64,000 nucleotides of DNA from an uncultured Poribacteria bacterium (GCA_958296135.2 CATQHZ020000001.1:2688001-2752000); one strand, 5' to 3'. Counted from the stretch's first letter, positions 15,639-31,929 are shown. Translations and numbers: made by a program. The notes: generated by a model not told the origin, from the sequence alone.

Positions 15639-16367
15639 ATGAAAACTCTTATGCAATATCCTGTTGTGATTTTCAAAGATCCGGATAGCATCTACGGCAT
15701 CGTTGTCCCAGACTTACCCGGGTGTATTACCGCCGGAAACACCGTCGAGCATGTGCTGACGCAAGCCGTGGAAGCCATTAAATGTCATCTGAGTGGCATC
15801 TTGACTGATGGAGAACCGATTCCGGAACCCAAGGACATCGCCTACCATCAGAACGACCCGGAATATGCCGATGCACTTCAGTGGGACACCGTGACGATAA
15901 CGCTGCCCGAACTCCGCCACTATCCGGTCCTGATATCCCGAAAACGGCGGAAGCACTACCGGCTCATCGTCCCAGACTTGCCCGGCTGTGTCGTGCGCGG
16001 CAAGACAGCACGCAATGCACTCGCGAAAGCAGGACTCGCCATCGAACGCTATATGGAAGCAAGAGTCCTTAAGGACGAAACAATACCCGAACCCAAACCC
16101 CTCGCGCACCATCGCGATAACCCCGCGCAGCCGGCGGGACAATGGGACTCGGTGCCGATTATCGTGCCGGAAATCAAGCATCTCCTCATCGCGCGCCCGG
16201 GACGCATCTCCCGCTTTTTCCGAGGGCTCGGGTTCACACGCTTTCCGTGGGAAGCACGCCCGCACCCCTGGATTCGCGGCGCGCGACCGCCGGAATGGCA
16301 AGAGGACAACACGCAAACAAAAGCGGCAGCGTTGAAAACGACACCGCAATTCGCGCAAACTGATTAA
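15639..16367 (+). CDS. hicB: HicB-like antitoxin with two tandem HicB domains
   Basis: YPV.I...Y...VPDLPGC...G.T occurs twice, each followed by IPEPK. Confidence 0.85.
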   Translation: MKTLMQYPVVIFKDPDSIYGIVVPDLPGCITAGNTVEHVLTQAVEAIKCHLSGILTDGEPIPEPKDIAYHQNDPEYADALQWDTVTITLPELRHYPVLISRKRRKHYRLIVPDLPGCVVRGKTARNALAKAGLAIERYMEARVLKDETIPEPKPLAHHRDNPAQPAGQWDSVPIIVPEIKHLLIARPGRISRFFRGLGFTRFPWEARPHPWIRGARPPEWQEDNTQTKAAALKTTPQFAQTD

Positions 16368-17691: not shown

Positions 17692-18882
17692 ATGACAACC
17701 GCTGAAATTAAAACGATGGCGACAGAATACATTATTAACACCTACGGCGACAGAAACCTCGCCTTCGTCAAAGGCGAGGGACCTTATCTCTGGGATGCCG
17801 AAGGCAAGCAGTATCTTGACTTCCTCGGCGGGCTCGCTGTCAACGGACTCGGGCACTGCCATCCGAATGTCGTCGCCGCCATTCAGGAGCAGGCAGGCAA
17901 ACTGCTGCATACCTCTAACCTCTACTACATCCAACCGCAGGCAGAATTGGCGAAAATGTTGGTAGAGAATTCCGACATGGACCAGGCATTTTTCTGCAAC
18001 AGCGGCGCAGAGGCGAACGAAGCAGCCATTAAACTGGCGCGCAAGTTCACCAAAGACAGCGGCCGGCCGGATGCCTACGAAATCATCACGATGGACGATT
18101 CGTTCCACGGACGAACGATGGCAACCATCACCGCCACGGCGCAGACAAAATACCACGTCGGGTTTGAACCGATGCTGGAAGGCTTCACCTACGTGCCGTT
18201 TGATGATTTGCCTGCAACCGAAGCCGCCATCAACGAGCAGACCTGCGCGATTTTGGTAGAACCAATTCAATCCGAAGGCGGAGTCAACATCCCTAGCGAC
18301 GGCTACCTGCAGGGACTCCGCGCGCTGTGCGACAAACACAACCTGCTCCTCATTTTCGACGAGGTGCAAACGGCGATGGGGCGGCTCGGCACCTTCTTCG
18401 GCTATCAGAGTTACGGCGTTGTCCCCGATGTCATCACAATGGCGAAGGCACTCGGCAGCGGTGTGCCTATCGGTGCGATGCTCGCGAAGCGTGAGATAGC
18501 AGCGAGTTTCGTCCCCGGCACGCACGCGGCGACGTTCGGCGGAAACCCGCTCGTCACAGCAGCGGCCCGCGCAACCGTGAAAACTATCTTAGACGAAAAT
18601 CTCGCCGTGAACGCCGTTAAGATGGGGAATTATCTCGCCGGCGGGTTGATGGAACTCAAGGGCAAATATCCTATCAAAGAGGTGCGCGGGAAGGGCCTGC
18701 TCCGCGGGCTCGTGATGGATGTCGATGCCAAACCACTCGCCGCGAAGTGCATCGAAAACGGGCTCGTCACCATCTGCACCAACGATTATGTGCTCCGGTT
18801 TTTACCGCCGCTCAATATCAACACGGGACACGTTGAGGAGGCGGTGAACATCGTCGAAAAATCGATGGGCGAGGTTTTTTGA
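17692..18882 (+). CDS. argD: Acetylornithine aminotransferase (class III PLP)
   Basis: FFCNSGAEANEAAIKLAR, SFHGRT, EPIQSEGG, DEVQT, MAKALG, TFGGNPL. Confidence 0.92.
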   Translation: MTTAEIKTMATEYIINTYGDRNLAFVKGEGPYLWDAEGKQYLDFLGGLAVNGLGHCHPNVVAAIQEQAGKLLHTSNLYYIQPQAELAKMLVENSDMDQAFFCNSGAEANEAAIKLARKFTKDSGRPDAYEIITMDDSFHGRTMATITATAQTKYHVGFEPMLEGFTYVPFDDLPATEAAINEQTCAILVEPIQSEGGVNIPSDGYLQGLRALCDKHNLLLIFDEVQTAMGRLGTFFGYQSYGVVPDVITMAKALGSGVPIGAMLAKREIAASFVPGTHAATFGGNPLVTAAARATVKTILDENLAVNAVKMGNYLAGGLMELKGKYPIKEVRGKGLLRGLVMDVDAKPLAAKCIENGLVTICTNDYVLRFLPPLNINTGHVEEAVNIVEKSMGEVF

Positions 18883-18903: not shown

Positions 18904-19068
18904 GCAGCGCGAAGACCTGGCCCTAGATGCCCCTTACGTCCGTAGCGCGAGGGCCTGTCCCTCGCAAAGCATTGACTGTAGAAAACAGCGGGCAGCGCGA
19001 GGGCCTGTCCCTCGCCATGCATCAAGCAGCCACAATACCGTAGCGCGAGGACCTGGCCCCCGCGCTAC
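18904..19068. repeat. Cluster of about 4 REP-like family B units
   Basis: G(T/C)AGCGCGAGGGCCTGTCCCTCGC copies; 19040-19068 is a full GTAG...CTAC palindrome. Confidence 0.8.
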
Positions 19069-19103
19069 GGGCCACACAGCAGTTCTTATATTCACGATGT
19101 CAC

Positions 19104-19133
19104 TTGACTCAACATCCGCTTATTCTGTATAAT
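19104..19133 (+). promoter_or_regulatory. Sigma70 promoter of the MTase gene
   Basis: TTGACT-18-TATAAT. Confidence 0.7.
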
Positions 19134-19225
19134 GTGAAAAACCTTAAAGAAGCGTCAAGACAGTCTAGTCATTCACACCCACTGAAACCCAGAAGCCCTA
19201 ACCAAACGCTTCGAGAAAAACAAAA

Positions 19226-22200
19226 ATGCCGACACCCGAAAACACCGAACGCATCTTACACCTATTACAAAACCTCCGCGGCCTCGAACCCCTGCGCGAA
19301 CTCTTCTGGCGAGAACTCAACTATACCCGCATCGATGAGCCTATCGCCGAACTGCCCGATTCTCGCACCCAGTGCCTCGCTGAACCACCGCGCCGATTTG
19401 CCGCCGCCGGCAGAAACAACGATTTTCACATCCTCTACGCGCACCTCAACACCGAAAAACTTCGGAAAACCGATGAACGCCAACTCATCGCGCACCTGCA
19501 GACGCGATTCTCGCACGCGCTCTACATTTTTAGCAATGCTGCGCAAGACCACTGGCACTTCGTCAACGTCACACTCGTTCGAGAGGCACGCGAAAAACGC
19601 AAGGCCCGCCACCGCTACCGGCGCATCACTATCGCACCCGACGCAAGACTCCGCACCGCCGCCGAACGCATCGCAATGCTCAAGCTGGAAACACTCGGCA
19701 CCGATGGGCTCTTTGAAAACCTCGACCACCTGACACCGCTGGACATTTCCAACCAACACGAGGCCGCCTTTGATGTCGATGCAGTGACAGCGCAGTTTTT
19801 CGCCGACTACCAGCGCGTCTTCAAACGCCTCCACACCGAATTGGAAACGCAAACCGCTGATAAAAAGTGGGCGCACGATGCCGCGCAACAATTCCTCAGC
19901 CGCTGTCTCTTCCTCTACTTCCTCCAGCGAAAGCGGTGGTTGGGAGACAATCCGGACTTCCTCCGGACGTTTTGGGAAGCGTATCAACGCCATCGACACC
20001 GGGAGGGCTCTCCTACCGAAAAACATCAAAAACCGGCGGGCGCGACACCGGGAGAATTTGTCGACAAGTGGCTCAACGTCCTCTTCTTTGCCGCGTTTAA
20101 CAAGCGATTTCATGGCGGGTATCGCTATTTCCCACACGACATCCGTGACACACTGCAACACGCTCCCTATCTCAACGGCGGGTTGTTCCGAGAAAATGAA
20201 TGGGATACCGAGTATGCAACAACCATTCCTGATACCCTCTGGCTAGAGATATTCACCTTCTTTGAGGGATATAATTTCACCATCGCCGAGGATACACCCT
20301 TGGAACAGGAAGTCGCCGTAGACCCCGAGATGATCGGCAAAGTCTACGAGAGTCTCGTCAGTGTCTCCGCCGAAACCGATGAACGCGGCGATGCCGGCAT
20401 CTTCTACACGCCGCGCATTGAAATCGACTTGATGTGCCGCCTCGCGCTCGTGGATAACCTCACAAATCACATCGGTGAAGCACACAAGCATAAACTTTAC
20501 GCGGCACTCTTCACGTTTGACGAGACAGAGAAGGCAGCCGCCGATGCACAACTCGCCGAGCAGTGGGGCAACATCGCGGCGCATCTCAACCGCATCACTG
20601 TGTTGGATCCGGCGTGTGGGAGCGGTTCGTTCCTCGTCGGCATGCTCCACATTCTCGATGACCTGGGTGAACGCGCCGCGCGGCACCTCGGCGCGTCTGT
20701 CCCCTCCCGTTTTGAACGCCGCAAGGCCATCATCGGGAAGAATCTCTACGGCGTGGACGTGATGCCGTGGGCCTGCAAAGTCGCCGAGCTCCGCCTCTGG
20801 CTCGCGCTCATCATTGAGGCGGAGATTCGCGAGGCAGAACTGCAGATTCGCGAGGCACCGCTGCTCCCTGATTTTTCGTTTAACCTTCGGCACGGGGATA
20901 GTCTGGTGCAGGACATCGGCGGGATGAACCTCGCGCAGACGCGCGCATTGGGCAGTGGCGTGCCGAGTGCCATCAAACGGAAGATAACGACGCTGCAGAC
21001 AGAGAAACTCAAGTTTTATCACAACGAGCGCGAGCGGAAATATGCGGAGAAAGCGGATGTCCAACGCGCCGAGAACGCGCTCTTCCGAGAGATATTAACG
21101 GCTTACGAGATGCAGTTGCCGAGGCAGATCGACTCGGTCCAGGCGTTGCTGAAGGCTCTCACTGCGGAACAGTTGACGATTGCAGAGGTGGGCAAACCGG
21201 TGGACACGCGGCTTGACGCGCTGACGCAGCAGAAGCAGGCGGAATTAGCACGGCACGAGGCGAACCTCGCGCAGGTGAAGCGGGCCCTCGGTGCGTTGAA
21301 GTCTCACACTGCGCCGCCGTTTGTGTGGGACATTGCCTTCGTCGAGATTTTCAATCAATACGGTGGGTTTGACATTGTCATCGAAAACCCGCCTTACGTC
21401 GGGCAACAAAAAATTAGCAGCCCGATCCTTCCACGCGTAAAAGTGACACGAGCCAACAAGCAAGAATATAAGGCGAAGTTAGCGCGTGCCGCCTATCAAG
21501 CCTTTCCAGAATTTTTCGGTTACCAACTGCACAAAGACACCCAACCGGAAAAGCCTGCATCTGCTGTAGAGAGTCGGCTAGATTCCCAAAGCGACCTCTA
21601 CATCTACTTCTACTTTCACGGGCTCTCGTTGCTGAACCCAAAAGGCACTTTCTGCACCGTTACTTCTAACTCGTGGTTGGATGCAAGTTACGGAAGAAAT
21701 CTCAAGGAGTTTCTGCTCAAGCAGTGCCATCTCAAAATGATTTTGGACAACGCCGTGAAACGTTCTTTCAAGGATGTTGATGTGAATACCGTGATTTGTC
21801 TCATCTCAGCACCGGGTGAAAATCAAGAACCCGGTTTGCAACACACAGCGCGGTTTGTCAATTTCACTGAACCGTTTGAGGCAATTCTGGATCCGGTGAT
21901 TTTCTACGAGATCGATACCGCAACGGCGCGTGTCAGTACACCCGAGCACAAGATCTATCCTGTCACGCAGCAAACACTGCTCGCCAATGGAACAGAAAAG
22001 GCGAAATATGCTGGTGACAAATGGGGCGCAAAATATCTTCGTGCTCCCGATATCTACTGGACCGTTTTGGAAAAAGGATCGGATAAATTGGTGCGCTTGA
22101 AAGATGTCGCCAAGGTTCGGAGAGGATTCCGAACAGGCGCGGATAACTTCTTCGCACCTAATCGGGAGACAATCGCAAAGTGGAACATTGAAGACGAATT

Positions 22201-22877
22201 TCTTCGCGCGGTTGTCACCAATTCAGAAGACGTAAAGAGTCTTGTTATTGCCTCTGCACAACTACCACGTCAAGTCTTTTTTTGCTCAAAAGAGAAGGCA
22301 TCCTTGACTGGAACATCCGCGCTTGCCTACATTGAATGGGGTGAGGCGGAAGGTTTTGACCAGAGGTTAACATGCCGCAGGAGGAGTCCGTGGTATGCTA
22401 TGGGCGGAGATCGGCCCGCCCCATATCTCTGTTTTCCGCTCCTAATTTCTTCGACAACCGCGAAAACCCCCTATGCATCCGAAGGTTGCTACGGTGTCGG
22501 CAATTTCATGGAAATTGACACGTCCAAGGAGTTGGCATTACCGCTCTGTTTTTCCTTGAATTCTACCCTTTTTCAGTTGATGGTGAATGTGAACGGCCGT
22601 TTGAACCGCACGTGGACATTGGAAATCCAGCCAACTGATTTGTCTAATTTGTTATGTGTTAGTCCTGAGTTAACACAAATTAAGTGGAGGGGGGGGGCGG
22701 TTGGACGCATCCCTCCTCGCATCCGAAGAATGGGACGTTTTATCGCCTGCCCCGGCGCGCATCGCAATTGACAACGTCATCTTTGACATCTTGGAATTGA
22801 CGCAAGGCGAGCGCGATGGCGTTTACGAGGCGGTTAGAGACCTCGTCGAAACCCGTCTGAGGAAGGCGCGGAGTTGA
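19226..22877 (+). CDS. Large N6-adenine DNA methyltransferase (Eco57I/Type IIG-like, with TRD); frameshift at G9 tract 22689-22697
   Basis: YLNGGLF, DPEMIGKVYE, G.FYTP, motif I VLDPACGSG, motif IV NPPY, SDLYIYF. The supplied ORF stops at 22771; the family-like tail IDNVIFDILELTQGERDGVYEAV..LVETRLRKARS* is in the +1 frame and ends at 22877. Confidence 0.88.
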
Positions 22878-22933
22878 AAAACTAGGTTTTTGGCATGCAT
22901 TAGCCCGGCGGAGCATCAATTATAAAAAATTCC

Positions 22934-22963
22934 TTGCACGAACCCGTTGAAGTATGGTAAACT
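22934..22963 (+). promoter_or_regulatory. Sigma70-like promoter of the coiled-coil/helicase unit
   Basis: TTGCAC-18-TAAACT with extended -10 TG. Confidence 0.55.
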
Positions 22964-22996
22964 TATACATAGCAACAAATTTGAAAGGAAAAAACG

Positions 22997-25441
22997 ATGA
23001 AAACTACTGATAATCAACGTCATAATGATTCGGAGTCTACGCGTTCCGCTAACAATACTCGGTTGGATAGGATCGAGAAGTTACAAGAACGCGGTGCTGA
23101 ACTGCAAATAAAAACGGACACGCATCTTGCTGCGAGTGTTGAACGCGACGCTGCACACGCCGCTCGTTTGGACAGTATGGAGGAACTGCTCCCACACATT
23201 GTAGAACTCCAAGTGCAAACAAACGCGCGCCTCACCGCCAACGAGGCACTGGATGCCGAACGCGATGCCCGCTTAGATAGTTTTGACGAACTGTTTCGGC
23301 GGATAGGGGAGTTCCAAGCGAAGACAGAGGCACTTCTCGCCGCCAGTGCCGAACGCGACACCGCGCGCGAGACACGCCTAGAGAGCATCGAGGAATCGTT
23401 CCAACGTATCGGAGAATTCCAAGCTAAAACGGAAGCACTTCTCGCCGCAAATGCCGAACGCGACACCGCGCGCGAGACACGCCTAGAGAGCATCGAGGAA
23501 TCGTTCCAACGTATCGGAGAATTCCAAGCTAAAACGGAAGCACTCCTCGCCGCAAATGCCGAACGCGACACCGCGCGCGAGACACGCTTAGAGAGCATCG
23601 AGGAATCGTTCCAACGCATCGGAGAATTCCAAGCGAAGACAGAGGCACTTCTCGCCGCAAATGCTGAACGTGAGGCAGAACGCGAGACACGCTTAGAGAG
23701 CATCGAGGAATCGTTCCAACGCATCGGAGAATTCCAAGCGAAGACAGAGGCACTTCTCGCCGCAAATGCTGAACGTGAGGCAGAACGCGAGACACGCTTA
23801 GAGAGCATCGAGGAATCGTTCCAGCGCATCGGAGAATTCCAAGCCAAAACGGAAGCACTCCTCGCCGCCAGTGCTGAACGCGACACCGCGCGCGAGGCAC
23901 GCCTAGAGAGCATCGAGGAATCGTTCCAGCGTATCGGAAAATTCCAAGCCAAAACGGAAGCACTCCTCGCCGCCAGTGCTGAACGCGACACCGCGCGCGA
24001 GGCACGCCTAGAGAGCATCGAGGAATCGTTCCAGCGTATCGGAGAATTCCAAGCCAAAACGGAAGCACTCCTCGCCGCCAGTGCTGAACGCGACACCGCG
24101 CGCGAGGCACGCCTAGAGAGCATCGAGGAATCGTTCCAGCGTATCGGAAAATTCCAAGCCAAAACGGAAGCACTCCTCGCCGCCAGTGCTGAACGCGACA
24201 CCGCGCGCGAGGCACGCCTAGAGAGCATCGAGGAATCGTTCCAGCGTATCGGAGAATTCCAAGCGAAGACAGAGGCACTTCTCGCCGCCAGTGCCGAACG
24301 TGAGGCAGAACGCGAGGCACGCCTAGAGAGCCTCACGAACGTGCAATCCAAGATGGAGGCCCTTCTCGCTGCCAATGCGGCGCGCGATACTGAACGCGAG
24401 ACACGCTTGGAAAACCTGGAGGACCTGTTCCAACAGATTGGCGCGTTCCAATCAAGGACAGAGACACTCTTCGCCGCTAGTGCCGAACGGGACGCAGCAC
24501 GCGAGACACGCTTGGAGAATATTGAAGCATGGCATCAGCAGACAGCTGAGTTCCAATCAAAGACAGAGGCACTCTTCGCCGCTAGTGCCGAACGGGACGC
24601 AGCACGCGAGACACGCTTGGAGAATATTGAAGCATGGCATCAGCAGACAGCTGAGTTCCAATCAAAGACAGAGGCACTTCTCGCCGCCAGTGCTGAACGG
24701 GACGCAGCACGCGAGACACGCCTAGAGAGCATTGAGGAATCGCTCCGCCGCATCGGAGAATTCCAAGCCAAAACGGAAACCCTCCTTGCCGCCAGTGCTG
24801 AACGCGATGCAAAACGCGATGCACACTTGGAAAGCATTGCAGCGTTCCAAGCCAAAACAGAGGCGCACTTTGCCATGAGTGCCGAACGAGACGCAGCACG
24901 CGAGACACGCCTAGTGAGCATCGAGGAATCGCTCCGCCGTATCGGAGAATTCCAAGCCAAAACGGAAGCACTCCTCGCCGCTAGTGCCGAACGTGATGCT
25001 GAACGCGATGCACGCTTGGATAGTATTGCAGCGTTCCAAGCCAAAACGGAAGCACTCCTCGCCGCTAGTGCCGAACGTGATGCTGAACGCGATGCACGCT
25101 TGGATAGTATTGCAGCGTTCCAAGCCAAAACGGAAGCACTCCTCGCCGCTAGTGCCGAACGTGATGCCGAACGCGATGCACGCTTGGATAGTATTGCAGC
25201 GTTCCAAGCCAAAACGGAAGCACTCCTCGCCGCTAGTGCCGAACGCGATGCCAAACGGGATAAGCAGCTGGAGGGTATGAATGAAAAGGTGGCGAACACT
25301 GAAAAATCCGTTGAGGCATTGAAGGGCGCGCTGACCCCCTGGAAACTTGTCCTCGGCGGAATCGTTAGTATCATCTTTGCCATGGTTTTGTCTGTGCTCG
25401 GCGCAAAAGGCATGGAGGTACTCCTAGACCTCTTCAAATAA
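22997..25441 (+). CDS. Long coiled-coil repeat protein with C-terminal transmembrane anchor
   Basis: About 22 repeats of 35 or 28 aa; hydrophobic tail LVLGGIVSIIFAMVLSVLG; AAGGA RBS. Confidence 0.85.
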   Translation: MKTTDNQRHNDSESTRSANNTRLDRIEKLQERGAELQIKTDTHLAASVERDAAHAARLDSMEELLPHIVELQVQTNARLTANEALDAERDARLDSFDELFRRIGEFQAKTEALLAASAERDTARETRLESIEESFQRIGEFQAKTEALLAANAERDTARETRLESIEESFQRIGEFQAKTEALLAANAERDTARETRLESIEESFQRIGEFQAKTEALLAANAEREAERETRLESIEESFQRIGEFQAKTEALLAANAEREAERETRLESIEESFQRIGEFQAKTEALLAASAERDTAREARLESIEESFQRIGKFQAKTEALLAASAERDTAREARLESIEESFQRIGEFQAKTEALLAASAERDTAREARLESIEESFQRIGKFQAKTEALLAASAERDTAREARLESIEESFQRIGEFQAKTEALLAASAEREAEREARLESLTNVQSKMEALLAANAARDTERETRLENLEDLFQQIGAFQSRTETLFAASAERDAARETRLENIEAWHQQTAEFQSKTEALFAASAERDAARETRLENIEAWHQQTAEFQSKTEALLAASAERDAARETRLESIEESLRRIGEFQAKTETLLAASAERDAKRDAHLESIAAFQAKTEAHFAMSAERDAARETRLVSIEESLRRIGEFQAKTEALLAASAERDAERDARLDSIAAFQAKTEALLAASAERDAERDARLDSIAAFQAKTEALLAASAERDAERDARLDSIAAFQAKTEALLAASAERDAKRDKQLEGMNEKVANTEKSVEALKGALTPWKLVLGGIVSIIFAMVLSVLGAKGMEVLLDLFK
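23275..25270. repeat. Intragenic tandem repeat, 105-bp and 84-bp units
   Basis: Unit spacing of 105 bp (e.g. 23378 to 23483); near-identical copies. Confidence 0.95.
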
Positions 25442-25451
25442 AGGAGGACAC

Positions 25452-28400
25452 ATGCCTCAAGATATCATTGACAACCGCAACGAAAAACTCATTGACAATG
25501 TCAATCTCATCTTGGATGAGACAGAGCGGGCCCGCTTCGCTGTCGGCTACTTCTTCCTCTCCGGGTTTACCGGCATCGCCGAGGCACTGCAAAACGTCAC
25601 TGAGCTCTGTCTCCTCATCGGGAACACGAGCACACGCGAGACTATTGAGCAGCTCGCCGCAGGGTATCAGCAGCTGGAATCTGTAGCGGAGATTCACTCG
25701 GCACACCGCTATTCACGAGACGTTGAACGCAGGGCACGCGCTCGTGAAACCGCGCAGAACCTCCGCGCGTGCATTGAATTCATGCCTCAGACAAATGCCT
25801 CGGAGCAGCTCATCAGAACCCTCGTTGAGATGATTGCCCGCGGACAGTTGAAAGTGAAGCTCTATACGAAGGAGCGTCTCCACGCAAAAGCCTACATTTT
25901 TGATTACGAGCAAAATGCGCGGTTTGAATCCGGCATCTCTATCGTCGGCTCATCTAATCTCACCTTGGCAGGGTTAACGAGCAATACCGAATTGAACGTC
26001 GTGGTTCACGGCAATGCCAATCAGGAGCAACTCCGCGACTGGTTTGACGCGCTGTGGGAAGAGGCAGAAGATTTTGACAAGGCCTTGATGGAAGAGATGC
26101 AAACCTCCTGGGCCCTCGCGCCTGTCCGGCCTTACGATGTCTACATGAAAACGCTCTACGAGTTGGTAAGCGACAGAGTGGCGGCGGATGAAAGCCGCAT
26201 CGCTCCAGCAGACGAGTTGACAACCCAACTCGCGGATTTCCAACAAGTTGCGGTTTCCCAAGCAATTCGGATTATTGATGCATACGGCGGTGTCTTCATT
26301 TCCGATGTCGTCGGTTTAGGCAAGAGTTACATCGGTTCGGCGATTGTCAAGCACTTTGAGCGGGGTGAACAGGCGCGCCCGCTCATTCTCTGTCCGCCTG
26401 CGTTGATGGCAATGTGGGAGCATTACAACGCCGCCTATCAACTCCACGCGCAGGTTCTCTCCACGGGGCTTTTAAGTAGCGGTGAAGCGAACGCGAGAGA
26501 GCTGCTCTTTGAAGACGTTCGCTATCGGCACTGCGATTTTGTCCTCGTTGACGAAAGCCACAACTTCCGCAATGCGAATACGCAACGCTACCGGGTTTTG
26601 CAGGAATTTCTCATGGCGGGAGAGAAAAAATGCTGTTTCCTCACGGCGACACCGCGCAACAAAAGCGCGTGGGATATCTACCACCAACTCAAACTCTTTC
26701 ATCTCAACGATGATACGCAGCTGCCCTTGGACGCGCCAGATCTGCGCGAATATTTCCGCATGATTGAAAACGGTGAACGCAGCCTCCCCGCGCTTTTACA
26801 ACACATTCTTATCCGTCGAACGCGGAACCACATCCTGCGCTGGTACGGCTACGATGCAGAAACAGATGAACCGGTAGATGCGACGCAATTCGCCGATTAT
26901 CTGAGTCGCAACCGCCGCGCTTACGTTCGCGTCGGCGATACCAAGCAGTTCTTTCCAAAGCGAACCCTCAAGACGATTGAATACAGCATTGAAGAAACCT
27001 ATCAAGGGCTCTACGCGCAGATTCGCGATTGCCTCGGTAAATCGCAATCCGCCGCGCAGTTGACTTATGCCCGTTATGGCCTCTGGCACTATGTGAAGGA
27101 GGAGAGACAGGATGTCCATCCGTATCAGGAGCTGCAGAGCGCGGGCAGAAACCTCCGCGGGCTGATTCGCATCCTGCTATTCAAACGTTTTGAATCCAGC
27201 GTGCATGCTTTCAAAATGACTATCTCTCGGTTTCACAGCGTCCATGTCGATTTCCTTTACGCGCTAGAAAATGGCATTGTGCCAGCAGGCGACGATGCAC
27301 AGAAAATCCTCTATGAGACAACCACCGCCGACCAAACCGATATCAGCCCAGAGGAACGAGACATCGGGCTGTTTCTGGAGGAACTGCGGCGTGCCTCCGA
27401 GCAATATAACATCCTAGACTTCAACGTCCCTGAACTTCGCGATGCAATTCAGCACGACATTGACATCCTGAAGCAGATTTTAGATATGGTTCAGAATATC
27501 ACCCCGGCACAGGATGCAAAACTTCAGCGGCTGCAAAGACTGCTGGAATTGCCACCTTTACACGGCAAAAAACGGCTCATCTTTACGCAGTATATTGACA
27601 CGGCAAGTTATCTCTACGAAAACCTGCAGGCGGAGGATACCGAGGTTATCCATAGCCACGGCAGCGACAGGAAACAGCATGTCGTCGGTAGGTTTGCGCC
27701 AAACGCGAATCAATACCGCTTGAAACCGGGGGAGACAGAGATAGAGACGCTCATCGCGACTGATGTCCTCGCCGAGGGGTTGAACCTGCAAGACTGCGGC
27801 CTGCTCATCAACTACGATTTGCATTGGAATCCGGTGCGTCTCATTCAACGCTTCGGGCGCATTGACAGGATTGGCAGTCAATTTGACGAAATCCACGGGT
27901 TCAACTTTCTGCCGGAGTTGGGGATTGAGCGCAACCTCGGTTTACGCGAGAAACTCCGACACCGCATTCAGGAAATCCACGATACCATCGGCGAAGATGC
28001 AGCCATTCTGGATAACTCCGAACAACTGAATGAAAGCGCGATGTATGCCATTTATGAGCAGCACGGTGAACAGCTCAGCCTTTTGGAAGAAAGCGAGGCG
28101 CCGAGTTTCGGATTAAGCGAGGCGGAGGAGTTGTTGCGGCAATTGAAACGGCAAAACCCGCAGGAATATCAACGCATCGCCGAGCTAAGAGACGGCATCC
28201 GTACCGGCATCCCCGCCGAAGTGGAGGGCACCTACGTTTTCTGTCGCGACGAACGTAACCGGCAGCTCGTCCTGCTTAATGAAAACGGAACTGAAAAGAC
28301 TACGGATATTGCCGAGATCCTTCGGCTACTTCAAAGCAATGCTGAATTGCGCGGCAAACCTGTTTCGCCTGAGCACAACGCCCGCGTCACTGAAGTGCAG

Positions 28401-28754
28401 GAAAAGTTTGCAGGACAAATCAGAGGCGTGCAAAACGCATTTCCCAAACCGAATTTGTCCCGCGCGCAAAGATACATCTTGCAGGAGTTAAGAATGCTGT
28501 CTAGCACTTCGTCAGACAGTGTGCTAGGGCAGCTTGAGCAGGCGTTCCGCGGCCGCTTGACAGAGAGCCTCAAGCGAGAAATCACTCGTCTCCAGCGCGA
28601 GAAAATCGCGGGCGAAGCACTGTCAACGGCGTTGAAAAATCTCTATCACCGCTACAATCTGGCGGCGTTAGGCAGCGGCGAGGCACAGCCAGATAAGCCG
28701 GTCCGCGCGCCGATTAAGGTGATTTGCAGCGCGGCGTTTGTTAAATTTGCATGA
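25452..28754 (+). CDS. PLD-nuclease / SNF2-family helicase fusion
   Basis: FAVGYF, LHAKAYIFD and GSSNLT (PLD); DVVGLGKS, DESH, LTATP, TDVLAEGLNLQ, WNPVRLIQRFGRIDRIG; AAGGAGG RBS directly after the upstream stop. Confidence 0.92.
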   Translation: MPQDIIDNRNEKLIDNVNLILDETERARFAVGYFFLSGFTGIAEALQNVTELCLLIGNTSTRETIEQLAAGYQQLESVAEIHSAHRYSRDVERRARARETAQNLRACIEFMPQTNASEQLIRTLVEMIARGQLKVKLYTKERLHAKAYIFDYEQNARFESGISIVGSSNLTLAGLTSNTELNVVVHGNANQEQLRDWFDALWEEAEDFDKALMEEMQTSWALAPVRPYDVYMKTLYELVSDRVAADESRIAPADELTTQLADFQQVAVSQAIRIIDAYGGVFISDVVGLGKSYIGSAIVKHFERGEQARPLILCPPALMAMWEHYNAAYQLHAQVLSTGLLSSGEANARELLFEDVRYRHCDFVLVDESHNFRNANTQRYRVLQEFLMAGEKKCCFLTATPRNKSAWDIYHQLKLFHLNDDTQLPLDAPDLREYFRMIENGERSLPALLQHILIRRTRNHILRWYGYDAETDEPVDATQFADYLSRNRRAYVRVGDTKQFFPKRTLKTIEYSIEETYQGLYAQIRDCLGKSQSAAQLTYARYGLWHYVKEERQDVHPYQELQSAGRNLRGLIRILLFKRFESSVHAFKMTISRFHSVHVDFLYALENGIVPAGDDAQKILYETTTADQTDISPEERDIGLFLEELRRASEQYNILDFNVPELRDAIQHDIDILKQILDMVQNITPAQDAKLQRLQRLLELPPLHGKKRLIFTQYIDTASYLYENLQAEDTEVIHSHGSDRKQHVVGRFAPNANQYRLKPGETEIETLIATDVLAEGLNLQDCGLLINYDLHWNPVRLIQRFGRIDRIGSQFDEIHGFNFLPELGIERNLGLREKLRHRIQEIHDTIGEDAAILDNSEQLNESAMYAIYEQHGEQLSLLEESEAPSFGLSEAEELLRQLKRQNPQEYQRIAELRDGIRTGIPAEVEGTYVFCRDERNRQLVLLNENGTEKTTDIAEILRLLQSNAELRGKPVSPEHNARVTEVQEKFAGQIRGVQNAFPKPNLSRAQRYILQELRMLSSTSSDSVLGQLEQAFRGRLTESLKREITRLQREKIAGEALSTALKNLYHRYNLAALGSGEAQPDKPVRAPIKVICSAAFVKFA

Positions 28755-28775
28755 AACTTGCATTTGTGGTATTAT
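28747..28775 (+). promoter_or_regulatory. Sigma70-like promoter of the TGT-ArcS fusion gene
   Basis: TTGCAT-17-TATTAT with extended -10 TG. Confidence 0.6.
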
Positions 28776-28820
28776 ATCTCTATCTACCGAATAAAGACAG
28801 ATGGGAATTAGAAAATAACT

Positions 28821-30752
28821 ATGCACACACACGAGAACGCTCGCGACACAAAAACCGACAGCGCGCCCACTATCTTCCGCACCGTCACTGCCACGGAGCA
28901 TGGACGGATCGGTGAATTGCACTTTCGCGCGGGAAACAGAAAATTGGAAACGCCGGTTCTCTACCCGGTCATCAATTTCCTCACCGGGACAAGCGCGCGC
29001 GGCGGCGGCGTTTGGAAATACATCCTCCGCAATTTCATGCAACACGATACCCCAACGCTATCCCAGGTCTTGCACTTTCTAGATTTCAACTTCACTGGGA
29101 AGTATCTCGCAAATTGGCGAAAAAAGTCGATGCGGGAGCATTACCTCGAACAGAACGGCGATTACCAAGGCGTGCTCTTTTTGGATTCGGGCGGCTTCAA
29201 ACTCCTTTACAACACGGGGTTGGATTTATCCGAATTTGGCATCCACAAAGAAACAGAGGCGGACGATATTCTCGCCATACAACTCGATTTTGATGGCGAT
29301 ATCGTCGCGTCGTTAGACTATCCTATCCCGCCGAATTTGGCGCGCGCTGAAGCAATACAACGGATGGAGAAGAGTTTTGCCAACGCCCGCCGCGTTGCGC
29401 AACAGTTGAGCGGCAAAACGGATATGCCCTACTTTTACGTTTGTTGTCACGGGCAATCCGGGCGAGATATTCAAGGCTACGTCCACAATGTCTTTGAGCA
29501 GATTGGCGAGTTGCTGCCCTCTTTTGGGTTGGCGGTCGGTTCTCTTGTCCCGTTGCGCGGCAAAAACGATTGGGCCGTCATGGAACTTCTCAACGGCGTA
29601 GTGGAGACACTCCCCGCGGCCCGGCGAGATAGCACACCGATTCACGCGTTCGGCGTGTCCGGTATGCTGACGCCTATCCTCGCTTATATCGGGGTGGACA
29701 GTTTTGACAGTTCGTCTTACGTCCAAGCCTCGCGAAGCCTCGCCTATTCGCACCCTGAAACGCTCAAGAAACTGAAGATTATGGAGATGGACGCGCTCAC
29801 TTGTGAGTGTTACATCTGCCAAGCTATCACGCTTGATGAAATCCAGCAGGGGTTCATGGAGGAGAAGAGTTATCAAGCCACCTCAACCGGCAAGTTTAAA
29901 AGCGAATACTACGCACTCCTCTCACTCCACAATTTTGAAATGGAGACGCGGCTGCTAACAGCCATGCGCGAGGCAATTCAGGCTGACGACGCGATTGAGG
30001 GGTTAACGCGACATATCGGAAAATTCCAACGCAACCGCGGCATCCGGGATGCCGTAGAATGGCTTTCCGCGAAAGATTTTGACGTGGCCACCCGGCTGAC
30101 CCGGACCTTGGTGCACATACCGATGGCCGCTGAGAAGTCAACTCGGAACCCAAATCAGTTGGAACTTTTCCCTTATGATACCTCGGAAAGTTCAACGACA
30201 CTCCTCCATGAGGACGAAACGCCGACTATCTCGCTTAACTATACGCCAGAAGATTTTCGCGTGCCAGCGGATTATCAGCCTCCGGCGGGAGTAGACATGC
30301 TGTTGGTAATCCCGTGCGCCGGACAGAAGCCGTATTCGCTTTCACGCACCCACACGTTGATGGCGAAAAAACTGCAGGAGGCATTCCCTGAAAAACATCA
30401 GCGGATTCACAAAGTCACGCTCTCCGGACTCTACGGCCCCGTCCCCGAAGAGTTTGAGGAAGAGGAAGCACTCGTTCGCTACGATTTCCAACTCGCAGCG
30501 CAGAACACCGCGCAGATACAACTCTGTGCGACGCGCCTCATTGACTATCTCCAAAAATATGGAGAGCAGTACGTCTTTACTGTCGGATATGCCACGAGCA
30601 AGGCTTACCGTGAAGTGCTTGCTATCGCCGAAAGCCGGTGCTCAAACTTCGTTTTGATGCCGAAAGTGCTCAAGCAGAAACGCTTGTCTGAATTCTTTCG
30701 GCACGTGCATTTAAACGCCTTGGTTGAGGAAGTCCAGAAAAAATTGGAATAG
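28821..30752 (+). CDS. TGT-superfamily transglycosylase fused to an ArcS-type (DUF5591-like) domain
   Basis: RIGEL...ETP, FLDSGGF, SLDYP, AVGSLVP, IHAFG, GVDSFDSSSY, Zn site CECYIC...HN; C-terminal PCAGQKPYSLSRTH and GPVPEEFE. Confidence 0.85.
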   Translation: MHTHENARDTKTDSAPTIFRTVTATEHGRIGELHFRAGNRKLETPVLYPVINFLTGTSARGGGVWKYILRNFMQHDTPTLSQVLHFLDFNFTGKYLANWRKKSMREHYLEQNGDYQGVLFLDSGGFKLLYNTGLDLSEFGIHKETEADDILAIQLDFDGDIVASLDYPIPPNLARAEAIQRMEKSFANARRVAQQLSGKTDMPYFYVCCHGQSGRDIQGYVHNVFEQIGELLPSFGLAVGSLVPLRGKNDWAVMELLNGVVETLPAARRDSTPIHAFGVSGMLTPILAYIGVDSFDSSSYVQASRSLAYSHPETLKKLKIMEMDALTCECYICQAITLDEIQQGFMEEKSYQATSTGKFKSEYYALLSLHNFEMETRLLTAMREAIQADDAIEGLTRHIGKFQRNRGIRDAVEWLSAKDFDVATRLTRTLVHIPMAAEKSTRNPNQLELFPYDTSESSTTLLHEDETPTISLNYTPEDFRVPADYQPPAGVDMLLVIPCAGQKPYSLSRTHTLMAKKLQEAFPEKHQRIHKVTLSGLYGPVPEEFEEEEALVRYDFQLAAQNTAQIQLCATRLIDYLQKYGEQYVFTVGYATSKAYREVLAIAESRCSNFVLMPKVLKQKRLSEFFRHVHLNALVEEVQKKLE

Positions 30753-30759
30753 GAAAAGC

Positions 30760-31929
30760 ATGAATAGCTACTTTTTACCGCCACGCATTGAATGTGGCAA
30801 CGGGGCAATCAAAGACTTGGCGGCGCATGTTGAACACCTCGGCGGGCGAAAACCGCTCGTGGTGAGCGATGCCGGTGTCCGCAGCGCGGGCATCCTCGCG
30901 AGAGCCATCGCGCCGTTGGAAGATGCCAATATCCCTTATGCCGACTATACTGAAATCGAACCGAATCCGACAGACATCAGCACGGAAAAAGGCGCAGCGT
31001 TGTGGCAAACGGCGGAATGCGATGTCATCGTCGCCATCGGCGGCGGCAGTGTGATGGATGCAGCGAAAGCCATCCGCATCTTGACGACGCATGAACCGCC
31101 GTTGGAGCCTTACTACGTCGATGTCGGCGGCAGGGAACGCATCCGCGATGACATGCCGCCCCTGATTTGTGTCCCGACGACAGCTGGCACTGGCAGCGAA
31201 GTCTCGCAAGGCGCAATTATCACCGATACATCGCAAAACACGACGGATAGATGGCGAAAGCGCGCAATCGTCACGCCGCTGAATATGTCGAACATCGCGC
31301 TCCTCGACCCGAGGTTAACGGTAGGAATGCCGATGCCGCTCACCGCCGCCACCGGCATGGATGCCATCACGCACGGGATTGAAGCGTATGTTGCCACGAG
31401 ATACCACCCTATCTCCGAAGGTGTCGCATTGCAGGCACTGAAGATGCTCGGCGCAAATATCCGACAAGCGTATCACCACGGCGACGATGTCGCAGCGAGA
31501 GGCGAAATGTTGCTCGGCGCAAGCATGGGCGCGTTTGCCTTTCAGAAAGGACTCGGGGCTGTCCACTCAATCGCGCATCAGTTGTCCACTGAAGCACCCA
31601 TACCGCACGGTGTCGCCAACGCGATACTGTTGCCACCGGTGATGGAATTTAACTTCTCTCATGCCGTGGACAAATACGCCGAGGTTGCCGATGTGTTAGG
31701 CGTAGACACTACCGGCATGTCTATAGAAGCAGCGGCGCGCGCCGCTATTGATGACATCCGCGCACTGAACGAGGAATTACGGATGCCAGCAGGGCTCGGT
31801 GCCTGCGGTTTAGCACGCGAAATGCTCCCCAAACTCGCCGCTGATTCTATGCTGGACCACTGCTACAAATCCAATCCGCGCCCCTGCACCGAAGACGATA
31901 TGTTGGCGTTGCTGGAAGCAGCGTTCTAA
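30760..31929 (+). CDS. Iron-containing alcohol dehydrogenase
   Basis: GGGSVMDAAK, PTTAGTGSE, GMDAITHGIEAY, HSIAH, HGVAN. Confidence 0.92.
   Translation: MNSYFLPPRIECGNGAIKDLAAHVEHLGGRKPLVVSDAGVRSAGILARAIAPLEDANIPYADYTEIEPNPTDISTEKGAALWQTAECDVIVAIGGGSVMDAAKAIRILTTHEPPLEPYYVDVGGRERIRDDMPPLICVPTTAGTGSEVSQGAIITDTSQNTTDRWRKRAIVTPLNMSNIALLDPRLTVGMPMPLTAATGMDAITHGIEAYVATRYHPISEGVALQALKMLGANIRQAYHHGDDVAARGEMLLGASMGAFAFQKGLGAVHSIAHQLSTEAPIPHGVANAILLPPVMEFNFSHAVDKYAEVADVLGVDTTGMSIEAAARAAIDDIRALNEELRMPAGLGACGLAREMLPKLAADSMLDHCYKSNPRPCTEDDMLALLEAAF

Follow-up and report, generated by a model that had tools for sequence, protein, structure and literature searches.

The window analysed here is a stretch of 64,000 nucleotides from an uncultured Poribacteria bacterium (GCA_958296135.2, CATQHZ020000001.1:2688001-2752000), and the locus in question is a run of four consecutive genes, all present as + strand open reading frames (ORFs), between argD and the gene of an Fe-dependent alcohol dehydrogenase (Fe-ADH; Table 1). 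They encode a DNA methylase (P0001), a tandem-repeat protein (P0002), a nuclease-helicase (P0003) and a protein in which a tRNA-guanine transglycosylase (TGT) domain is fused to the core of archaeosine synthase (P0004, the TGT-ArcS fusion). A preliminary description of the window proposed that the four genes form one defence or modification system, and added the caveat that independent genes may have accreted at one site. In the labels used below, G000 is the window's own genome (5.19 Mb, 4 contigs; the window is G000:C1:2688001-2752000), g denotes a genus and f a family. Orthologues were sought in 176 genomes of the phylum with each of P0001-P0004, and PADLOC was used as hidden Markov models alone, without its system rules.

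Table 1. Genes and sequence features of the locus and its flanks, in window positions.
Feature	Position	Strand	Remark
argD	17692-18882		Upstream flank; TIGR00707 1.9e-144
Promoter-like site before the methylase gene, TTGACT-18-TATAAT	19104..19133	+	11/12 matches; consensus match only
P0001, predicted large gamma-class N6-adenine DNA methylase with C-terminal target-recognition region, 1181 aa	19226..22771	+	
G9 homopolymer tract, where the methylase ORF departs from the conserved frame	22689..22697	+	
Out-of-frame remnant of the conserved methylase C-terminal tail (...RLRKARS)	22698..22877	+	Stop 22875-22877
P0002, tail-anchored tandem-repeat coiled-coil protein, 814 aa	22997..25441	+	
P0003, HKD/PLD nuclease fused to SNF2-type ATPase, 1100 aa	25452..28754	+	
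Promoter-like site before the TGT-ArcS gene	28746..28775	+	9/12 with TG; consensus match only
P0004, TGT-DUF5591 fusion (archaeal-type guanine transglycosylase domain and archaeosine-synthase C1 core), 643 aa	28821..30752	+	
Fe-ADH	30724..31929	+	Downstream flank

Profiles and motifs confirmed the domain assignments made in the preliminary description, and the fine layout was also as described: AGGAGG lies directly 3' of the P0002 stop and ahead of the P0003 ATG, and 66 bp separate P0003 from P0004. Its three promoter-like motifs fared unequally, in that the one at 19104 proved strong and the one at 28746 modest, and no site was listed for that at 22934; the region holds 13 such sites, against 6.9 +/- 3.0 in shuffles. 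Pfam, PADLOC and NCBIfam profiles agreed that DrmA/B, DpdB/C, QueC and a CD-NTase are not among the four genes.

P0001 is of the Eco57I/Type IIG kind, with Pfam matches to Eco57I (2.4e-28), MmeI_Mtase, N6_Mtase and M_Eco57I_C, the motifs DPACGSG (motif I, 461-467) and NPPY (721-724), and an Eco57I-type C-terminal region. P0003 combines PLDc_2 (122-202), SNF2-rel_dom and Helicase_C in Pfam; it has a single PLD motif HxKxxxxD (144-151) and a complete SNF2-type motor with GLGKS, DESH and QRFGRIDR. Orthologues of P0003 (at least 56% identity, full length or nearly so) occur in 38 genomes of the phylum. A P0001 orthologue accompanies it in 33 of these, always upstream, on the same strand and no more than 20 kb off, with a gap of 189 to 15,962 bp. 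Four of the five exceptions (G065, G080, G008 and G115) are contig ends or fragmented assemblies, and only G030, which has 15% contamination, carries the two genes far apart. Because the flanks of tightly adjacent pairs (G069, G111, G110 and G163) vary by genus, comprising trpF, a DegT aminotransferase, dehydroquinase and an ABC permease, the pair appears to move as a unit, that is, as a mobile module. Full-length P0003 homologues (about 30% identity) are also found on plasmids of cyanobacteria, actinobacteria and haloarchaea (Anabaena, Rhodococcus, Halorussus), where a 'DNA methyltransferase' of 921-1313 aa adjoins in all three cases inspected. G000 itself has two more HKD-SNF2-like genes (C1:1632393-1637137 and C1:2981639-2988367), each with a P0001-like methylase gene nearby, which brings the modules of this general kind in the genome to at least three. 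This distribution supports a predicted, conserved restriction-modification-like defence pair of P0001 and P0003, in line with the restriction-type pairing proposed earlier. In the literature on PLD, SNF2 and methyltransferase proteins in anti-phage restriction-modification no paper naming such a two-gene form was found, the supplements of PMC12839542 and of two preprints lying outside that search.

The gene between the pair in the window behaves differently. P0002 consists of about twenty 35-residue repeats, encoded with a 105-bp tandem period over 23312-25251. Its strongly hydrophobic 19-residue windows (16 with a mean Kyte-Doolittle value above 1.6) all lie C-terminal from residue 777, in a single segment that peaks at 784-802, and Pfam, PADLOC and NCBIfam return low-complexity noise only. 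In a tblastn search against 17 pair loci a homologue in the methylase-helicase slot was found solely in G066, the sister genome; a role for P0002 as a core partner of the pair was rejected on this count. The slot is empty in G069, G111, G110, G163, G157 and G135. Pfam annotation of 61 ORFs from the gaps of ten loci placed at least one defence-typical domain (by our own labelling) in all seven gaps of at least 4.7 kb, including ThsB_TIR, TIR_2, SLFN_AlbA_2 (Schlafen/AlbA_2-HATPase_c_4), AAA_21/AAA_15, HD, Nuc_deoxyrib_tr, PIN and 8xMP, and several long gaps also carry IS630 and DDE transposases. The G035 gap (L045 8177-12678) holds a CBASS-type set of a SAVED protein, a SMODS cyclase and a ThiF/E1-like protein. 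Judged by these comparisons, P0002 is a genus-specific passenger in a variable slot. The gap behaves like a collecting site for other defence genes, so that a search for further ones in sponge symbionts has a simple point of departure there.

The TGT-ArcS fusion follows a distribution of its own. It occurs in 54 of the 176 genomes in a patchy manner (0/40 in g5, 12/65 in g6), and copies in G031, G070 and G151 are broken. Of the 38 genomes with P0003, three (G000, G065 and G066, all g1) have it within 20 kb of the helicase; in 20 it sits on a different contig or 69 kb or more from the helicase, and in 15 no copy came up at E <= 1e-20. A further 31 genomes carry the fusion and no listed P0003 orthologue of 56% identity or more. 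Helicase and fusion are separated by 66, 148 and 694 bp in the three genomes of g1. In family f1, Fe-ADH follows the fusion at nine of nine loci, which does not imply a functional link, and the other flanks, where named by Pfam, are non-defence genes (GNAT, ComEC, 3-keto-disaccharide hydrolase, PhyH). In f2 and f3, a PF01555 methylase stands immediately upstream at six loci, three of which (L059, L062 and L064, in G031, G055 and G022) also have a MutH-like endonuclease directly upstream, both genes being co-oriented with the TGT-ArcS gene. The methylase is present in G035 and missing at the same place in its congener G033. QueD stands ahead of the extra fusion copies that G055 and G045 carry, and of the only copy of G018. 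A quick maximum-likelihood tree (IQ-TREE, 55 rows; Poribacteria sequences of 600-700 aa and metagenome sequences of at least 540 aa with two short motifs present, L004 being among those dropped) placed all Poribacteria copies in one clade with support 100, which splits by family, and its sister is a solitary metagenome lineage. Because the fusion is monophyletic in Poribacteria and its tree follows taxonomy, it is read as vertically inherited and independent of the pair.

Beyond the phylum the setting changes. Metagenome context was obtained for 71 loci in 37 lineages at 70% identity, 32 of them with at least three flanking ORFs. The deazaguanine genes beside the fusion in distant lineages are QueC, QueD, QueE-like radical SAM and YhhQ; other neighbours are a second DpdA-like TGT, DUF6884, a GHKL ATPase, DpdJ-like and YprA-like helicases, a weakly DpdH-like ATPase, and HerA with NurA. 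These neighbour sets were picked after recurring clusters had been seen, with a single representative supplying the name of each. According to PMC11701544, DUF6884 has YaaA/DUF328 as a relative, the family to which DpdC belongs (PMC12839542, section 36). The main text of the YprA/BRIGADE preprint has no mention of ArcS, archaeosine, DpdA, transglycosylase, DUF6884 or GHKL. The gene neighbourhoods place the fusion family as a whole in Dpd-like DNA-modification islands; members of the Poribacteria branch and of its closest outgroup stand alone. A viral origin of the fusion was also considered and rejected, since viral contigs searched with an alignment of the family yielded three weak TGT-only matches (24-25% identity) and no fusion.

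A trace of how the present arrangement arose may lie elsewhere in the host genome. A second methylase copy (G000:C1:1539101-1542637; L047 9084-12638, - strand) is inverted relative to the copy in the window and is preceded by a GNAT gene and a 189-aa gene. Both have orthologues (68-69%) in G069, where they stand ahead of the TGT-ArcS gene, and we therefore infer that the module was inserted beside an older block of GNAT, 189-aa, TGT-ArcS and Fe-ADH genes and then rearranged between inverted methylase copies. The inverted copies are a likely candidate substrate for a 1.17-Mb inversion.

The stretch is very probably a composite of three units that came together independently, namely a mobile two-gene restriction-like module, a passenger and a separate TGT-ArcS enzyme, as far as comparative sequence data can tell; the caveat of independently accreted genes has turned out to be the better part of the preliminary description. 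Several observations weigh against this composite reading. The helicase-TGT adjacency is retained in all three g1 genomes, and the genomes counted in the surveys are kin, not independent samples. The repeated restriction-modification adjacency of the fusion in f2 and f3 could exceed chance. In 27 of the 32 informative lineages outside Poribacteria the fusion lies beside deazaguanine and/or helicase, HerA, GHKL or DpdA-like genes, and a functional tie of the fusion family with nuclease-helicases is real in general. As to the module itself, the methylase is out of frame at the G9 tract in all three g1 copies, so that the module may be off or decaying, and in MANTIS, the nearest described system, methylation requires MtsA and MtsB according to the abstract and section 3 of preprint 10.64898/2026.09.23.753747, partners of which there is none at the window locus.

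The alternative is a single system in which N6-methyladenine and a deazaguanine would both mark DNA, the HKD-SNF2 protein would restrict DNA lacking either mark, and the coiled-coil protein would act as a membrane tether or sensor. Four co-oriented and tightly spaced genes, an arrangement that is kept in G066 and, up to the end of the contig, partly in G065, would suit such a system, as would the Dpd-like islands with helicases in which the family occurs; yet 35 of the 38 pair genomes lack an adjacent fusion (and 15 of these any detected one), the fusion occurs in genomes that lack a listed helicase orthologue, the coiled-coil protein is limited to one genus, and the fusion has a promoter-like site ahead of it and a variable spacer. 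A single four-gene system is thus highly improbable. Joint self-marking by both bases likewise finds no support, the TGT-ArcS gene being inherited separately with conserved neighbours of its own. Linkage of TGT-ArcS relatives to helicase and restriction-modification genes, which the earlier proposal looked for, does exist in the distant lineages and at the PF01555 units of f2 and f3, with partners other than this pair, and the pair in turn is distributed without TGT-ArcS. For that proposal the main value of the analysis is negative, the dual-mark system being an accident of neighbourhood.

Among described systems the pair comes nearest to MANTIS/Gao_RL, which is BREX-related, of Type 2 and centred on DUF499. 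According to sections 28 and 30 of PMC12839542 and to preprint 10.64898/2026.09.23.753747, MANTIS consists of MtsA (DUF499 AAA+), MtsB (a small DUF protein), MtsC (methylase) and MtsD (PLD nuclease and SF2 ATPase). The window locus shares with it an N6-adenine methylase that carries target recognition in the operon (MtsC-like), an effector that joins an SF2/SNF2-type ATPase to an HKD/PLD nuclease at its N-terminus (MtsD-like), and a restriction-modification-like logic. It differs in that no DUF499 protein was found among the four proteins or in 61+37 neighbouring ORFs at 17 related loci (the DUF499 matches of G000, at C1:1957931, 3692217 and 4209348, are all far from the window). As to the small DUF3780 partner (MtsB; DUF3870 in the preprint), a Pfam scan of this locus and the 17 related loci gave none, and a genome search with PF12635 (DUF3780) was without match, as was its control. 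In addition, P0003 matches the PADLOC model C3a139 'HKD+Snf2' best (9.6e-80), far above HmaA (1.5e-23); the name of that model goes back to a table that lists neighbours of type III CRISPR (PMC6546367). Class 1 DISARM (DrmMI, DrmD, DrmC, DrmA, DrmB) has in common with the locus an adenine methylase, an SNF2 helicase and a PLD nuclease, the latter two being fused in the window, and PADLOC gave matches to DrmD (2.4e-34), DrmMI (2.9e-20) and DrmC (1.8e-7). However, no DrmA or DrmB (DUF1998) is present at the locus beyond generic helicase similarity, and P0003 reaches 145.3 bits with the DrmD profile NF038317 against a cut-off of 610. P0003 resembles DpdE, too, in a generic way, with 70 bits where the cut-off is 500. 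From MANTIS, DISARM and Dpd the locus departs in at least one defining feature each, and membership of all three was rejected.

By analogy with these systems, a mechanism can be proposed for the pair. The 1181-aa methylase, which carries the only target-recognition region, would hemi- or fully methylate adenine in its site and would also direct its HKD-SNF2 partner. The latter would dimerise into one PLD active site, as in MtsD of MANTIS (a dimer with one PLD site according to preprint 10.64898/2026.09.23.753747 and PMC12839542), BfiI and Type ISP enzymes, and, on the same analogies, would use ATP-driven translocation and cut unmethylated incoming DNA. Functionally the pair would resemble a Type ISP enzyme split into two genes. 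With the Type IIL/IIG and Type ISP enzymes (MmeI, DrdV, BpuSI, LlaBIII) its methylase shares a helical spacer, a gamma-class methyltransferase and a target-recognition domain; the fold of P0001 residues 139-410 resembles the spacer and N-terminal methyltransferase part of MmeI (Z 8.5) and the N-domains of Type I M-subunits, and PglX is a further fold match of the methylase (Z 6.6). In contrast to those enzymes, the nuclease and motor of the pair are on a separate polypeptide and of PLD/SNF2 type.

A different division of labour would have the methylase as a self-contained Type IIL/IIG enzyme with an N-terminal nuclease, and the HKD-SNF2 protein as a separate, SauUSI-like modification-dependent enzyme that travels along. 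The best PADLOC matches of P0001 are indeed Type IIG REase-MTase models (7.5e-48), MtsD resembles SauUSI in section 16 of preprint 10.64898/2026.09.23.753747, and the first 150 residues of P0001 form a confident alpha/beta domain in the predicted model. Residues 6-167 are weakly like DrdV (Z 5.4), BpuSI (Z 4.9) and the putative restriction-endonuclease domain 9Y1L (Z 4.8), values of 4.8-5.4 being in the range where, according to the tool, a common arrangement alone may be reflected. However, the N-terminal model has no Foldseek match at E <= 0.001, the invariant N-terminal columns of 16 aligned P0001 orthologues contain no conserved D...(D/E)xK set such as the PD-(D/E)xK residues of those enzymes, and the inheritance of both genes together, always in one order and on one strand, in 33 of 38 genomes points to one unit. 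This division is accordingly held to be improbable, and the two-gene restriction-like module is retained.

A feature that the preliminary description overlooked concerns the 3' end of the methylase gene, which leaves the conserved frame at the G9 tract. As read, the ORF ends in an Arg/Gly/Pro-rich tail, and the conserved tail of its orthologues (...EEWDVL...ILELTQGERDGVYEAV...) is encoded in another frame 3' of the tract, ending at 22877; the frame-0 translation of this segment matches the in-frame tails of the G111, G105, G163 and G022 orthologues. At the same site the tract is G9 in the window, the second G000 copy, G066 and G069, and G10 in G068, where the ORF extends to 1215 aa (the tail-motif check being unmatched); G110 has a C48 run. 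In G111 and G105 the tract is missing and the tails are in frame. Phase variation at the tract is a reasonable, possible reading of these comparisons, which makes the tract a candidate switch, and a shared homopolymer miscall or a fixed truncation is also possible.

The pair could accordingly be switched off or decaying, the G9 frameshift having removed the methylase tail, either as a remnant or as a phase-OFF state. The tail is out of frame in frame +1 in the window, the G000 paralogue and G066 and in frame +2 in G069, the orthologues of several genomes have internal stops, and contigs assembled from four runs of one sample agree on G9 with no indel. Against this, the two large ORFs show no other damage and retain every catalytic motif, a miscall common to the assemblies is possible, and minor length variants are invisible in contigs. 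The tract recurs at one site in five gene copies, with G10 in G068, and a reversible switch fits better than decay for that reason. An inactive or decaying pair is held to be unlikely. Since specificity sits in the methylase, the tract could switch both activities of the module together. The two G000 methylase copies are 96-100% identical over residues 1-550 and only 36-60% over 900-1150, a difference that reads in the alignment as a recognition-domain swap; together with the poly-G tract, the second copy suggests switchable specificity. Should the pair prove active, it would show a methylase and a PLD-helicase of the MANTIS kind working in the absence of both loader proteins required in the studied system, which would bear directly on the control of such methylases.

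The fusion protein itself belongs to a small family, which amounts to 97 clusters at E <= 1e-30 among 1.84 billion representatives. P0004 matches TGT (3.1e-19) and DUF5591 (1.8e-13) in Pfam and has the TIM-barrel, the three Asp residues and the CxCxxC...H zinc site of the tRNA-guanine transglycosylase superfamily. Across 27 aligned members, with identities as low as 30%, D122, S123, G125, D166, D296, C330, C333 and H370 are invariant, and K503, P504 and Y505 are invariant or nearly so within the C1 motif PCx3KPYx2Sx2H at 498-511, a motif given in this wording in PMC10516641 and PMC5699537. In HMMER, the three Asp of P0004 align with the DSG, LD and FDS stretches of Pyrococcus horikoshii arcTGT (1IQ8). 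The predicted model (predicted local distance difference test 86.6, predicted TM-score 0.86) matches this structure at E 2.5e-20 and bacterial and eukaryotic TGTs at a TM-score of about 0.8. We take the three aligned Asp to be the catalytic residues of the transglycosylase, and P0004 keeps every one of these catalytic residues together with the ArcS C1 motif. P0004 therefore probably handles 7-deazaguanine bases, to judge from its motifs; it would exchange guanine for host-made preQ0 and convert it to an archaeosine-type base. G000 encodes the preQ0 genes QueC and QueD as well as a canonical Tgt.

What P0004 modifies is less clear-cut. With archaeal ArcS and arcTGT (TgtA) it shares the TGT barrel with its zinc site, the C1 motif and the aligned aspartates, but a PUA domain (Pfam) and a C2 domain are lacking, the predicted model stopping after the C1-like domain, and the bacterial host has a canonical Tgt of its own; the NCBIfam scores are also low (TgtA 87 against a cut-off of 350; ArcS NF040592 78.7 against 440 bits). 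With Vibrio phage nt-1 DpdA2 and ArcS2 and with bacterial Dpd, as presented in PMC10516641 and in section 36 of PMC12839542, it has in common a transglycosylase and a DUF5591 C1 module, and its distant relatives sit with DpdA-, DpdC-, DpdJ- and DpdH-like genes and QueC/D/E. It differs in that the two modules are fused, that the TGT domain is nearer to arcTGT than to DpdA (the PADLOC 'TGT' model gives E 0.007 only, and no DpdA match was obtained), and that no DpdB/DpdC or restriction genes DpdD-K are adjacent. The 415-aa TGT paralogues beside the distant fusion relatives do match PADLOC DpdA. In the literature found on DUF5591 and on fused ArcS/DpdA in bacteria there was no paper on a bacterial TGT-DUF5591 fusion.

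One possibility is that the fusion is a housekeeping RNA enzyme that places an archaeosine-like base in tRNA and is unrelated to defence. Vertical inheritance, the housekeeping surroundings in f1 and in the nearest outgroup lineage, the arcTGT and TGT enzymes of tRNA as best sequence and fold matches, and the missing DpdA match are what such an enzyme would show. Absent RNA-binding PUA and C2 domains, the patchy occurrence with broken copies and the Dpd-like contexts of most distant lineages speak against it, as does the report in PMC10516641 that plasmid DNA acquired dG+ through phage nt-1 DpdA2 together with a DUF5591 protein that stands alone. A tRNA housekeeping role is thus doubtful, though well short of negligible. 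Because distant relatives sit in Dpd-like deazaguanine islands, the P0004 family is probably related to DNA modification; for P0004 itself DNA is a somewhat likelier target than tRNA, approaching an even chance. It can be suggested, tentatively and with less confidence than for the choice of DNA, that the solitary fusion writes an archaeosine-type (dG+/preQ0-derived) base into the sponge-symbiont chromosome as an orphan epigenetic or anti-restriction mark made from host preQ0, and that the site just upstream may serve as a docking place for unrelated restriction modules, the HKD-SNF2 pair here and the MutH-like restriction-modification unit in sister families. The fusion would then be a candidate for archaeosine-type bases in bacterial DNA, which in the available portions of PMC10516641 and PMC5699537 are shown for viruses only.

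Other deazaguanine-related genes occur in the host genome. At G000:C1:950516-955582 (L080 7517-12583, - strand) a third TGT-family gene, of 348 aa and with a weak PADLOC DpdA match, forms a co-oriented run with genes for a HerA-type ATPase, for a 530-aa protein that belongs to no known family and for an MNT/HepT fusion; the run recalls the HerA-centred systems with a TGT in section 36 of PMC12839542. Contig C2 of G000 (143,886 bp; e.g., L081, L082) resembles a large phage genome with many small co-oriented genes. It encodes QueC, GTP cyclohydrolase I, a double QueD, thymidylate synthase and kinase, an RNA ligase, an NrS-1-like polymerase domain, a sigma factor and a DNA methylase, and has no PF01702 match.

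Two minor features lie upstream of the methylase gene. A dispersed palindromic REP-like element of the GCGAGGGCC...GGCCCTCGC type has 12 matches in the window against 0.01 expected, and four of its copies stand between argD and the methylase gene (18906-19070). At window positions 15639-16367, upstream of a mandelate-racemase-like gene, a 242-aa protein with two HicB-like antitoxin stretches is encoded.

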